DNA from: a virus
Strand: one strand, 5' to 3'
Virus record (IMG/VR): IMGVR_UViG_3300028392_000049
Span: 24,680 to 88,679 of that record
DNA: 64,000 bases
Below are positions 7,034-8,061 of the stretch, piece by piece. Position 1 is the stretch's first letter. Each line of letters begins with the position of its first letter. The notes under the pieces are model-generated. The model did not search any database. It was not told the origin of the DNA and was given only the letters and a program-made list of their open reading frames with translations. The position numbers and the translations under genes were made by a program.

Positions 7034-7056
7034 ATTATACCTGCCCGTACTGACAA
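7034..7056 (-). promoter_or_regulatory. RecA-NDp/PafBC-type promoter of the RHH gene
   Basis: tTGTCAgta-8nt-TATAAT, 6 nt upstream of the ATG. Confidence 0.6.
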
Positions 7057-7069
7057 ATATAGGGTAAAG

Positions 7070-7141
7070 CTCCCGCTAGTGGATTCGAACCAATAACCCC
7101 AGAGTTAACAGCTCTGTGCTCTGCCGTTGAGCTAAGCGGGA
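7070..7141 (-). tRNA. tRNA-Asn(GTT)
   Basis: Cloverleaf TCCCGCT...CAGAG-CTGTTAA-CTCTG...GGTTCGAATCC...AGCGGGA-G; no encoded CCA. Confidence 0.9.
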
Positions 7142-7146
7142 TTGAG

Positions 7147-7224
7147 TGGAGTAGCAGAGAATCGAACTCTGGTCCTAGTAATTTCCGCGTGCGGTTTTAA
7201 TACTAGTCGAAACCTTCCTACCCC
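7147..7224 (-). ncRNA. Mini-tmRNA: tRNA-like domain only (78 nt)
   Basis: GGGGTAG/CTACTCC-A acceptor stem with G3:U70, tmRNA D-loop GGTTTCGAC, P2 helix CTAGTA/TACTAG, GAC linker, T-arm CAGAG-TTCGATT-CTCTG; no anticodon arm and no tag ORF. Confidence 0.8.
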
Positions 7225-7225
7225 G

Positions 7226-7304
7226 TGCTGGACCTTGGAATCGAACCAAGCGTGCTTTCGCGACAGATTTACAGTCCGTTGCCCCACCTTGGGGCCTGCA
7301 CAGC
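7226..7304 (-). tRNA. tRNA-Tyr(GTA), atypical
   Basis: ACGGA-CTGTAAA-TCTGT anticodon arm, short variable arm, T-arm CTTGG-TTCGATT-CCAAG; A at position 8 and one acceptor-stem mismatch. Confidence 0.8.
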
Positions 7305-7309
7305 TTACG

Positions 7310-7382
7310 AGCCTCAAGCAGGAATCGAACCCGCGACATCAATATTACAAGTATTGCACTCTGCCAACTGAGTTATTGAGGC
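7310..7382 (-). tRNA. tRNA-Thr(TGT)
   Basis: GCCTCAA...CAATA-CTTGTAA-TATTG...GGTTCGATTCC...TTGAGGC-T. Confidence 0.92.
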
Positions 7383-7389
7383 ACAGCTT

Positions 7390-7866
7390 TTAGCTAACAG
7401 CACGTTGTTTAAGTTTAGCAGATTCTCTGTATTGATGTTTTCTGGCTTTCATATACTCAGCTTTTTTAGCCTTGCATGGAGCACATGGGCAATTACGTTT
7501 ACCTGAGTTTCCTCCGCCGTGCTCTACTGATTCAAGATCCCCTTCTGCGTAACTTTTTTTAATGTGGCACTCTTTACAGAGCACTTGACATTTAGCAAGC
7601 TCTGCTTGAACTTTAGCTTCACTGCCACCCCCAATAATTTTTCCTATTTCATAGGTTTTATTATTGGCATCAATGTGATCTAATTCAAGACTTTCAATCG
7701 ATCCACAATGAGCACACTGACTACCCAAAGCTTTAATGGCTGCGTCTCTACGTTTTTTATAGCGAAGCCTTTGGTATTCCTTCATATAATTGTTATAACA
7801 AGTACGACATTTACCCGAATTGATTGCGGGCTCTGTTGTGCAGAGGGAGCATATTTTCATGCCCAC
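7390..7866 (-). CDS. HNH endonuclease
   Basis: CAHCGS...LELDHID...CQVLCKECHIKK; immediately upstream of the tRNA operon. Confidence 0.85.
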   Translation of the reverse strand: MGMKICSLCTTEPAINSGKCRTCYNNYMKEYQRLRYKKRRDAAIKALGSQCAHCGSIESLELDHIDANNKTYEIGKIIGGGSEAKVQAELAKCQVLCKECHIKKSYAEGDLESVEHGGGNSGKRNCPCAPCKAKKAEYMKARKHQYRESAKLKQRAVS

Positions 7867-7878
7867 ACCTTAGCATAA

Positions 7879-8061
7879 CTATTCCTGGTCGCGCAAACCG
7901 ATGGTAATGAGCCACATGACTAGTGTAAATAGGATAGCTGCACCTACTACGGTTTTAGCACTACCATCAAGAACACACCAAGCAATGAACATACCTAATA
8001 GTGTCCATAGCTGATTTAAGGTTTCAATAAAGGCATTAGCAAACCATTTAAGAAGACTCAT
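7879..8061 (-). CDS. Small two-TM membrane protein
   Basis: Two hydrophobic stretches; overlaps the upstream gene. Confidence 0.7.
   Translation of the reverse strand: MSLLKWFANAFIETLNQLWTLLGMFIAWCVLDGSAKTVVGAAILFTLVMWLITIGLRDQE

Follow-up and report, generated by a model that had tools for sequence, protein, structure and literature searches.

The phage under study comes from fresh water, and the window (the whole 64,000-nt stretch of DNA that was analysed) carries on its minus strand an HNH endonuclease gene (7390..7866; PHROG 4234, E 1.5e-31) immediately upstream of an operon of tRNA genes. The operon opens with tRNA-Thr (UGU; 7309..7382, from ARAGORN and Rfam), followed by tRNA-Tyr (GUA; 7225..7304, from ARAGORN, with 31.9 bits for the Rfam tRNA model), and it includes tRNA-Asn (GUU; 7069..7141, from ARAGORN and Rfam), all on the minus strand. 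Between tRNA-Tyr and tRNA-Asn lies a 78-nt gene for a mini-tmRNA that consists of the tRNA-like domain only and runs from G1 at 7224 to the discriminator A73 at 7147 (7147..7224, minus strand). The letters given for this gene by the first-pass annotation are exactly those of the minus strand, and its claim of a mini-tmRNA inside a phage tRNA operon holds, the neighbouring tRNAs being called by ARAGORN. The genes are closely packed: tRNA-Tyr ends at 7225/7226, directly upstream with a spacer of 0-1 nt, and tRNA-Asn starts directly downstream at 7141, five bases past the beginning of the mini-tmRNA 3′ trailer (CUC, 7144..7146, minus strand), in which C74 is kept and CCA is not encoded.

The neighbours of the mini-tmRNA are thus the HNH endonuclease, the tRNAs and an Arc-like repressor; the gene sits in the replication module, and the IMG/VR record bears direct terminal repeats. 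No match to SmpB (PF01668), Pth (PF01195) or the CCA-adding enzyme (PF01743) was found in the complete 88.7-kb phage genome. Between 6700 and 8200, the numbers of promoter-like sites (4, with 2.5 ± 1.8 expected) and terminator-like sites (2, with 1.2 ± 1.0 expected) were within expectation. Among the sequencing runs listed for this stretch there is no RNA run, and the one strong entry is a freshwater DNA run. A tRNA-like element elsewhere in the genome (about 2071-2122) was set aside as unrelated, having neither G3·U70 nor any tRNA or tmRNA match in Rfam; its sole Rfam match was a chance-level snoRNA (E 0.45).

Structure of the 78-nt RNA

In the Rfam search of the 64-kb window, the stretch 7144-7224 (minus strand) matched the tmRNA model RF00023 with 52.1 bits (E 1.2e-17), above the curated gathering threshold of 47 bits, and our own covariance model, R1, gave the 78-nt element 90.7 bits. 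The RF00023 match covers model positions 1-374, with 302 internal positions reduced to 10 nt. On the same stretch the tRNA model (RF00005) scored lower than the tmRNA model and was removed by clan competition, and the tmRNA_permuted model reached 20.3 bits (cut-off 47) on a shifted stretch, 7085-7174. ARAGORN, which had been suggested as a further check, called nothing at 7147-7224. No D-stem can be drawn from the window sequence, and no cloverleaf with a D-stem and an anticodon arm. The missing ARAGORN call, the lower tRNA score and the lack of a drawable D-stem leave the alternative of a degenerate ordinary tRNA without support.

The proposed structure forms 21 of 21 standard pairs in the window sequence, G3·U70 included (all coordinates below are on the minus strand). 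The acceptor stem joins its 5′ strand GGGGUAG (7218..7224) to CUACUCC (7148..7154) through 7 of 7 pairs, with G3 at 7222 facing U70 at 7150 (U75 of the 78-mer, U70 in tRNA numbering); this 7-bp stem, the G3-U pair and the terminal A make up the alanine identity in the window. The stemless D-loop GAAGGUUUCGA (7207..7217), aligned to the consensus GGaUUCGAC of RF00023, carries two blocks known from the D-loop of tmRNA, GG and UUCGA(C). Helix P2a is formed by CUAGUA (7201..7206) and UACUAG (7175..7180), a pairing borne out by family covariation, and it is followed by an A-rich internal loop, UUAAAA (7195..7200), where the family consensus is TAAA ahead of the hairpin. A GAC linker (7172..7174, aligned to GGAC of RF00023) leads into the T arm GUUCGAUUC (7155..7171; 5 pairs, CAGAG with CUCUG around a UUCGAUU loop). 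The D-loop GG..UUCGAC, the linker and the T arm can all be aligned column by column to the RF00023 consensus. Where a normal tmRNA has about 300 nt of pseudoknots and tag frame, the window has a capping hairpin, CCG-CACG-CGG (7185..7194); it had been drawn as CCGC-AC-GCGG, which would need an impossible 2-nt loop, and the realistic form is a 3-bp CCG/CGG stem with a CACG tetraloop.

The most stable fold from RNAfold (−24.1 kcal/mol, z −2.45) has the acceptor stem, helix P2a and the capping hairpin but no T arm; the tRNA-like fold of the element, at −22.0 kcal/mol, is the one we prefer because of its covariation support. The mRNA-like domain (resume codon, tag frame with stop, pseudoknots) is absent, its place being taken by the 10 nt that stand for 302 model positions, so that the RNA is not a complete tmRNA and is incapable of complete trans-translation. 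One frame in the window that spans the hairpin and P2a (GCA CGC GGA AAU UAC UAG) was considered as a hidden tag and rejected, since it is not conserved: among the matches listed, GCA is absent from the P2 region of 68 of 151 unique family members, and an in-frame stop before the T arm occurs in 14 of the 83 members that have GCA, against 188 of 453 control frames. The view that neither a tag reading frame nor pseudoknots are present therefore stands, the middle of RF00023 being deleted and no reading frame being conserved across the family; likewise, assignment to the tmRNA tRNA-like domain is borne out by the above-threshold RF00023 match together with the family covariation. The stretch 7147-7224 holds a real gene, whose RNA is a tag-less, 'TLD-only' tmRNA of the kind known from Mycobacterium phage DS6A.

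Family members, relatives and known counterparts

A pattern scan in which acceptor pairs 1-4 and portions of the D-loop and T arm were fixed found the same architecture, about 63-89 nt long, in at least 119 IMG/VR contigs, and a second scan with the acceptor unconstrained also gave at least 119 viral contigs. Model R1 recovered 101 elements from 100 sources (929 kb), and at E ≤ 0.001 there was no ordinary tRNA among these 101 elements, though the loci contain tRNA genes. In the R1 alignment, among the matches listed, 97.2% of cells were paired; shuffling lowered this share to 68.9%, and sliding the partners to 40-52%. Changes on both sides occur in 16 of the 22 pairs; since the alignment was fitted to the model structure, these counts lean towards that structure. 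In the T arm 100% of cells are paired, and two-sided changes are seen at 4 of the 5 family pairs (matches listed). The covariance-model search for compensatory change in P2 that had been proposed gave a clear result among the listed matches, which come from unrelated phages: 6 of the 7 P2a family pairs change on both sides, with 95.2% of cells paired. Conserved structured homologues thus exist: they occur in at least 119 contigs, and each helix shows compensatory changes. The D-loop and the GAC linker are conserved across the family, and other lineages have GNRA-type loops at the place of the capping hairpin.

The same pattern gave only 35 matches in 185,579 bacterial and archaeal species genomes, which points to a phage association; 8 of these 35 fall short of 7 acceptor pairs and are perhaps not mini forms. 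The tag-less mini-tmRNA form is common in phages. As to its surroundings, among the matches listed a Phage_capsid-family gene starts about 100 nt downstream on the same strand in 20 loci, and for 92 of 121 loci ARAGORN called no tRNA gene in the whole of the flank that was fetched. The 15 largest neighbour-gene clusters include no integrase, and the neighbour-gene clusters hold no conserved defence-related partner gene. One cluster (representative L036) was considered as a terminase, had no Pfam match and was left unnamed.

The nearest relatives of this phage do not carry the gene. Among 80 related IMG/VR loci, gathered through a 436-aa neighbour protein, and in 5 whole related records, model R1 found no mini-tmRNA (0/80 and 0/5), meaning that the gene is dispensable in this phage lineage. 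In the nearest relative (L135), as a blastn comparison showed, tRNA-Asn alone is kept of the operon, with the HNH gene, tRNA-Thr, tRNA-Tyr and the mini-tmRNA all absent. Since close relatives lack the element, synteny could not be used, and the family evidence was drawn from unrelated phages. When cultured phages were searched, megablast of the 1.1-kb region gave no match, and blastn of the 81-nt element gave a single one, pSt2308.

A 'TLD only' tmRNA has in fact been in print for DS6A, along with the same idea of SmpB titration (PMC4131195, PMC11915505), so the novelty implied by the first-pass annotation was overstated and its structural description stands, the window element being by its sequence a homologue of the DS6A one. 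The DS6A element (JN698994.1, 28478-28557; tmRNA Website tmID 11587, 'Standard, no CDS') shares with the window the 7-bp acceptor stem with G3·U70, the stemless D-loop, P2a, the A-rich loop, the T arm, A73, the lack of an encoded CCA and an identical CCGCACGCGG capping hairpin, and R1, which was built without it, gives it 61.4 bits. The two differ in sequence, with GGUCGAC and GCAC in DS6A against UUUCGAC and GGAC in the window, and DS6A scores 43.2 bits with RF00023, below the cut-off, against 52.1 for the window. The DS6A element stands alone after structural and lysis genes, whereas that of the window lies in a tRNA operon; the DS6A host is Mycobacterium, whereas the window belongs to a freshwater phage of lower G+C (42-50%). 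In E. coli the DS6A RNA is reported, after Mao 2009, to inhibit the endogenous tmRNA (PMC11915505, PMC4131195).

Cultured BRock-like Streptomyces phages carry a mini-tmRNA in 5 of 5 cases, none of them with an RNA annotation, and 4 of the 5 copies keep G3·U70 with U-A as pair 4. The capping 10-mer is identical in DS6A, pSt2308, GiJojo, LuckySocke and BRock. The Alone3 copy, at 52.9 bits, is mismatched in both P2a and the T stem and looks partly decayed, and the pSt2308 copy gives a weak, sub-threshold mascRNA match (28.8 bits, cut-off 42.5).

Both ends of canonical SsrA (RF00023) recur in the window element, which has an acceptor stem bearing the alanine identity set, the GG..UUCGAC D-loop, the base of helix P2a, the GAC linker and the T arm, but lacks the roughly 300 nt that hold four pseudoknots, the resume codon, the tag frame and the stop codon. 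With tRNA-Ala it has in common the G3·U70 and A73 identity set, the T arm and the D-loop GG, but not the D-stem or the anticodon arm. A natural reduction to the tRNA-like domain is also seen in CDS-less organellar tmRNAs (jakobid and oomycete mitochondria, and a plastid form of about 65 bp in Mallomonadaceae), likened here to the phage family by description; these, however, are organelle genes and mostly permuted, and the mitochondrial ones are described as kept together with SmpB, with a rescue role assumed (PMC11915505). Engineered TLD fragments follow the same design, both tmRNA ends being joined by a tetraloop-capped P2a, as in the Thermus construct (5′ 25 nt and 3′ 34 nt joined by UUCG; PDB 2CZJ); such fragments are reported to bind SmpB and, together with it, to support polyalanine synthesis without mRNA in vitro, after Shimizu and Ueda 2006 (PMC3929946). 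They are laboratory constructs, however, and have neither the conserved A-rich internal loop nor the second short stem seen in the phage form.

The alanine identity set

With the acceptor unconstrained there were 94 unique matches, 88 of which are intact (5/5 T stem, 7/7 acceptor stem) among the matches listed. The other six were set aside from the identity-set count: four (L223, L246, L252, L253) have no T stem and look like chance matches, and two (L229, L248) look like mini-tmRNAs with a 6/7 acceptor stem. All 88 intact members have G1-C72, G2-C71, G3·U70 and A73. Acceptor pair 4 varies in the same 88 (GC 60, CG 16, UA 5, GU 4, AU 3), and pairs 5-7 covary. Among the unique family members listed, C74 is kept in 140 of 151 and CCA is encoded in 53 of 151. 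An invariant identity set beside covarying pairs 4-7 argues that alanine charging is under selection, and it fits the earlier description of the RNA as alanylatable. The invariance could come partly from RNase P, EF-Tu or SmpB-stimulated folding rather than from alanyl-tRNA synthetase, or partly from a D-loop and T-arm search pattern that samples one sublineage only.

Possible functions of the phage mini-tmRNA

The element probably enables the phage to interfere with ribosome rescue and tagging in its host. In our leading reading, which we give an even chance of being right, the element would be a charged, SmpB-dependent mini-tmRNA that competes with host tmRNA and diverts or blocks host rescue-and-tag. 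It would be transcribed together with the Thr-Tyr-Asn tRNA operon and excised by host RNase P and 3′-end enzymes, and the host CCA-adding enzyme, invoked because the phage encodes none, would complete its 3′ end. Host alanyl-tRNA synthetase would charge it through G1-C72, G2-C71, G3·U70 and A73; SmpB, again of the host since the phage encodes none, would bind it; and with EF-Tu it would compete with the full-length host tmRNA for entry into ribosomes that have stalled at the end of an mRNA. Because it has neither resume codon nor tag frame, the nascent chain would get alanine, possibly several over repeated rounds, and not the ssrA degradation tag, and the host rescue-and-tag pathway would be diverted or blocked during infection.

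A point against this competitor is that charging may be dispensable for tmRNA inhibition, in which case a plain SmpB sponge would suffice. Such an RNA would bind or titrate host SmpB and so destabilise or idle the host tmRNA, with aminoacylation and ribosome entry irrelevant; Hudson, Lau and Williams 2014 describe a similar molecule that strongly inhibits tmRNA, chargeable or not, 'perhaps acting by titrating SmpB' (PMC4131195), and the conserved D-loop and GAC linker correspond to the SmpB-contact region of solved TLD-SmpB complexes (PMC3929946). A sponge, however, needs none of G1-C72, G2-C71, G3·U70 and A73, which are lost in 0 of the 88 listed members while neighbouring pairs vary, and C74 is kept as well in 140 of the 151 listed, so we hold this explanation to be quite unlikely. 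The identity set found in 88/88 of these members would also suit a helper instead of an inhibitor, in which the charged RNA and host SmpB take over the nascent chain where a ribosome has stalled on a broken mRNA, with release by drop-off and peptidyl-tRNA hydrolase or by an ArfA/ArfB-type release factor; the phage would gain translation capacity, and its proteins would go unmarked for ClpXP. In favour of productive, tag-free or alanine-tail rescue are the CDS-less mitochondrial tmRNAs, retained with SmpB and assumed to act in rescue (PMC11915505), the repeated peptidyl transfers that TLD and SmpB are reported to run in vitro (PMC3929946), and the full-length tmRNAs of other phages, which suggest that phages want more rescue, not less (PMC4131195, PMC9004378). 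But the RNA, lacking a stop codon, offers no built-in means of release, Pth is not encoded by the phage, and the sole in vivo result that we found cited (PMC4131195, PMC11915505) is that tmRNA is inhibited in E. coli; rescue of this kind appears unlikely, if well worth keeping in mind.

Less is to be said for roles outside trans-translation. The spacing of the element from its neighbours in the window, 0-1 nt on the tRNA-Tyr side and 5 nt on the tRNA-Asn side, and its place about 100 nt ahead of a Phage_capsid-family gene in 20 of the loci listed, would suit a cis-acting RNase P or RNase Z site that punctuates the tRNA operon here and late mRNA ahead of the capsid gene in other phages, the released RNA being functionless, and the weak sub-threshold mascRNA match of the pSt2308 copy points the same way; yet any tRNA-like fold would do for processing, which leaves the tmRNA-specific D-loop, the GAC linker and the identity set unexplained, and in the window the adjacent tRNAs already give processing sites. 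We regard a processing signal as very unlikely. It is extremely unlikely, in our estimate, that the RNA is a decoy or target mimic for another recogniser of the tmRNA/tRNA top half, such as a host defence nuclease, a sensor or RNase R: no defence-related partner gene is conserved beside it, and 92 of the 121 loci listed have no ARAGORN tRNA in the flank. The element does travel with tRNA-Tyr and tRNA-Asn beside an HNH gene, and the nearest relative lacks this block; phage tRNA sets may serve to counter defences that cleave tRNA, and the suggested tie of the mini-tmRNA to such defences is circumstantial. There is also a report of a phage anti-CRISPR protein that associates with fragments of tRNA and tmRNA and with RNase R (PMC11662646). 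Finally, ssrA is a frequent integration site for phages and islands, which carry the 3′ end of the gene (PMC9004378, PMC11915505), and the Alone3 copy has a partly decayed appearance (52.9 bits), but a non-functional relic, whether a decayed tmRNA gene or the attP remnant of an ssrA-integrating phage, is hardly credible. Remnants of attP hold the 3′ part only, whereas the window has both halves, paired; every helix of the family shows compensatory change; and no integrase is found among the 15 largest neighbour clusters, with the element placed in the replication module of a record with direct terminal repeats. An ssrA-derived attP fragment was accordingly rejected for the window, where the 5′ half is present and paired and the genes around the element code for an HNH endonuclease, tRNAs and an Arc-like repressor.

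Bacteria rescue ribosomes and tag proteins mainly by trans-translation, a system that is also a drug target. The TLD-only kind of tmRNA has been known since 2009 from a single phage, DS6A (PMC4131195, PMC11915505), and the curated tmRNA database of 2025 is reported to hold 79 phage sequences among 97,179, with 72 entries classed as 'Permuted, no CDS' against 9 as 'Standard, no CDS' (PMC11915505). In the literature we found no description of a widespread phage family of such RNAs, only mentions of DS6A. The form is probably under-annotated, given at least 119 contigs per scan against those 9 database entries, the ARAGORN miss and the unannotated Streptomyces copies. New here are the invariance of the identity set when the acceptor is left free, the copies in BRock-like Streptomyces phages and the absence of the gene from the nearest uncultured relatives. 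The invariance makes it testable whether the RNA is a sponge or a charged adaptor, and BRock, LuckySocke and GiJojo are cultured Streptomyces phage systems that bear the homologue and have a harmless host.

Tentatively, and with the chances somewhat against it, phage mini-tmRNAs may be charged adaptors, not passive sponges, that with host SmpB and under phage control add one or several alanines, template-free, on stalled ribosomes in place of the ssrA tag, forming an alternative rescue or quality-control route across phages of many bacterial phyla. If true, its signature would be the absolute conservation of the alanyl-tRNA synthetase identity elements while the rest of the acceptor stem drifts. 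A 78-nt phage gene that engages trans-translation would be a cheap natural tool with which to switch off or rewire the pathway.

The mini-tmRNA and its predicted fold

On re-reading, the minus-strand sequence of window 7147–7224 matched base for base the transcription in the first-pass annotation, which had proposed here a 78-nt mini-tmRNA consisting only of the tmRNA tRNA-like domain (TLD). The coordinates also bear out its placement between two tRNA genes: running from G1 (7224) to the discriminator A (7147), it lies one base downstream of tRNA-Tyr (3′ end 7225/7226) and is separated by a CUCAA spacer from tRNA-Asn, which starts at 7141, with tRNA-Thr (7309–7382) further upstream of tRNA-Tyr and all four genes on the minus strand. 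CCA is encoded neither in the mini-tmRNA nor in these adjoining tRNA genes.

When the whole window was searched with Rfam, the tmRNA model RF00023 (374 positions, gathering score 47 bits) matched at 7144–7224 with 52.1 bits (E 1.2e-17). Both ends of the model are matched; the part between them that contains the pseudoknots and tag frame, 302 positions long, is reduced to 10 nt here. An ordinary tRNA identity was rejected, since the Rfam tRNA model scored below tmRNA over the same interval and was dropped by clan competition. ARAGORN, proposed as a check along with Rfam, made no call at the mini-tmRNA when run on the window.

In the tRNA-like fold all 21 of 21 pairs are standard, G3·U70 included, at −22.0 kcal/mol. 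The RNAfold minimum (−24.1 kcal/mol) loses the T arm, and covariation within the family supports the tRNA-like fold as the predicted form rather than this minimum. The small hairpin had been drawn with a 2-nt loop, which is impossible; in reality three base pairs close a CACG tetraloop.

A phage family and its alanine identity set

To exclude full-length tmRNAs, the IMG/VR database was scanned with a pattern allowing only 15–45 nt from D-loop to T arm, and at least 119 contigs matched. Its fixed parts were acceptor pairs 1–4 and some of the D-loop and T arm; the other three acceptor pairs, left free, proved to be paired in 119/119 of the matches listed. A covariance model (R1) built from 21 of these sequences recovered 101 elements in 100 sources (929 kb) and hit no ordinary tRNA there at E ≤ 0.001, in loci that do hold ARAGORN-called tRNA genes. 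In the resulting alignment, which is fitted to R1 and so leans on the model, 97.2% of cells were paired, against 68.9% after shuffling and 40–52% with slid partners. Both sides change in 16/22 pairs, and compensatory change is found in every helix, including P2, for which the first-pass annotation had suggested looking for such changes with a covariance model.

Since the P2 cap differs by lineage (GNRA-type loops in many members; CACG, CAUG or CUUG in others), it looks like a structural cap, and the A-rich loop preceding it is conserved with consensus TAAA. In some viral contigs two different copies lie within a few kb of each other, as at loci L049 and L076, both in IMGVR_UViG_3300027749_000047 (135,953 bp), and at L005:1565–1637 and L005:5111–5183. 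At three further loci (L014:2976–3318, L047:4100–4442 and L093:5905–6228) an ARAGORN 'tmRNA' of 323–343 nt shares its 3′ end with a mini element, which could be spurious pairing with upstream sequence or a longer form in those phages.

In a second scan only the D-loop and T arm were specified, the acceptor being left free to remove bias, and at least 119 IMG/VR contigs were obtained. Among the 94 unique matches listed, 88 had a fully paired T stem and all seven acceptor base pairs; the six set aside were four chance-looking matches and two with a 6/7 acceptor stem. G1–C72, G2–C71, G3·U70 and A73, which make up the alanyl-tRNA synthetase recognition set, were present in 88/88 of these listed matches with the acceptor unconstrained. 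Pair 4 was GC in 60, CG in 16, UA in 5, GU in 4 and AU in 3, and pairs 5–7 covary freely. Alanine charging thus seems to be under selection, and the invariance of this identity set is our main new argument.

Tag frames and 3′ ends were counted over 151 unique elements among the matches listed. The P2 region lacked any GCA in 68/151, and of the 83 elements with a GCA there, 14 had a stop codon in frame ahead of the T arm, against 188/453 control frames with a stop. The claimed absence of a tag ORF therefore holds, and the short GCA ... UAG frame in the window is, as a tag, a coincidence. C74 is retained in 140/151 elements and CCA is encoded in 53/151; this retention despite few encoded CCA ends may reflect constraint from CCA addition or 3′ processing.

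Genomic setting and possible host

The source record (IMG/VR; 88,679 bp, direct terminal repeats, estimated complete) has a G+C content of 42–50%, and the sequencing run that matches it most strongly is a freshwater metagenome. The mini-tmRNA is located in the replication module. Its tRNA operon immediately follows a gene for an HNH endonuclease and is followed in turn by one for an Arc-like repressor, with DNA polymerase and helicase genes beyond the latter. No SmpB, peptidyl-tRNA hydrolase or CCA-adding enzyme was found encoded across the complete phage genome, so any function of the mini-tmRNA must rely on host proteins. In the gap between tRNA-Asn and the Arc-like gene, TTGTCAGTA-N8-TATAAT (window 7034–7056, minus strand) fits the actinobacterial PafBC/RecA-NDp-type promoter motif; this candidate, not listed by a sigma-70 promoter scan, would be consistent with an actinobacterial host. 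Elsewhere in the same phage genome, beyond the window, a 52-nt hairpin resembling an acceptor plus T arm (G000:C1:2071–2122, equal to L297:172–223) lacks G3·U70, matches no tRNA or tmRNA family in Rfam, and appears unrelated to the mini-tmRNA.

Among cultured phages, five from Streptomyces (LuckySocke, Alone3, GiJojo, pSt2308 and BRock) have the closest DNA polymerases, at ~39% identity across 98% of the protein. All five carry the mini-tmRNA, unannotated (loci L001, L215, L216, L217, L218), between tRNA-Val and tRNA-Ser of their tRNA arrays. Pair 4 has become U–A with G3·U70 unchanged in 4/5 copies, and the Alone3 copy looks partly decayed. In GiJojo, the gene 44 'hypothetical protein' CDS (L215:1501–1743) starts right on the mini-tmRNA and is probably a mis-call. 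The search pattern that matched at least 119 viral contigs gave only 35 matches in 185,579 bacterial and archaeal species genomes (596 Gb), from many phyla and for the most part on contigs of MAGs; the mini-tmRNA is therefore overwhelmingly a phage gene. Of the 35, only two, one in an Acidimicrobiales MAG and one in a Mycobacterium MAG, have the CCGCAYGCGG cap, and one Streptomyces genome has a near variant. Polymerase relationship, cap and freshwater origin together suggest, from small numbers, an actinobacterial host.

Since this phage's closest uncultured relatives lack it (0/80 loci, 0/5 whole records), the mini-tmRNA is by this comparison an accessory gene in this lineage. The nearest relative, L135 (neighbour protein 74% identity), retains tRNA-Asn at 93% identity, and the HNH gene, tRNA-Thr, tRNA-Tyr and mini-tmRNA are replaced there by other sequence with a different ORF (window 7145–7890 versus L135:7447–8565). 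The mini-tmRNA may have come in together with the homing-type endonuclease as one block, and these four genes could make up a mobile tRNA cassette linked to that enzyme.

In the fetched flanks of the family, ARAGORN found no tRNA gene at 92/121 loci; at 20 a tRNA lies ≤200 nt away, on the same strand every time. Neighbour-gene clustering with Pfam identified the head module as a second common context, with a portal gene at 23 loci, an XkdF-like protease at 28, and at 20 an HK97-type capsid gene on the same strand, beginning ~100 nt past the mini-tmRNA (for example L107:302–1486, minus strand, with the mini-tmRNA ~108 nt upstream). Many small phages show the order portal, XkdF-like protease, mini-tmRNA, HK97-type major capsid gene. 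Such placement suggests late expression. No integrase cluster was present among the 15 largest neighbour clusters.

Prior art and possible function

'Mycobacterium phage DS6A (TLD only)' was listed by Hudson, Lau and Williams (PMC4131195), who state that a similar molecule is a strong inhibitor of tmRNA regardless of whether it can be charged, perhaps through titration of SmpB. The 2025 tmRNA database paper, whose 97,179 sequences include 79 from bacteriophages and 9 of the 'Standard, no CDS' form, repeats this (PMC11915505). The DS6A element (JN698994.1 28478–28557) shares the architecture of the window's mini-tmRNA and has an identical cap, CCGCACGCGG; its scores are 61.4 bits with R1 and, under the gathering score, 43.2 bits with RF00023. 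The window's mini-tmRNA is a TLD-only tmRNA, a kind already known; the literature searches turned up no account of such a family being widespread in phages.

The tmRNA TLD binds AlaRS, EF-Tu and SmpB, the last standing in for the anticodon arm; a laboratory version of the TLD, with its two ends linked through a tetraloop, has been crystallised with SmpB, and such a fragment with SmpB supports polyalanine synthesis without mRNA (PMC3929946). In the proposed mechanism, RNase P and 3′ processing would release the mini-tmRNA, the host would add CCA, and the RNA would be alanylated and then bound by host SmpB. It would compete with host tmRNA for SmpB and stalled ribosomes, so that alanine instead of the ssrA tag would reach nascent chains.

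We put the chance that the mini-tmRNA acts as such a charged competitor of host tmRNA at about even, and consider a net-beneficial, tag-free rescue rather unlikely. An uncharged sponge is more doubtful still: it would have no need of the alanine recognition set, yet the set never varies in the matches listed. Because an RNA that merely soaked up SmpB would not require it, this invariance tilts the mechanism toward a charged RNA acting on the ribosome. Only a small chance is left for three further readings together: a signal for processing, a decoy aimed at some other binder, or a relic. Of the first-pass proposal of an alanylatable, SmpB-binding RNA, part is borne out: the identity as a tmRNA TLD is solid, and the function is what we infer.

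Taken together, the family is far larger than the searched literature indicates, and the invariant alanine identity set, together with the cultured Streptomyces phages, makes the question of its function testable.
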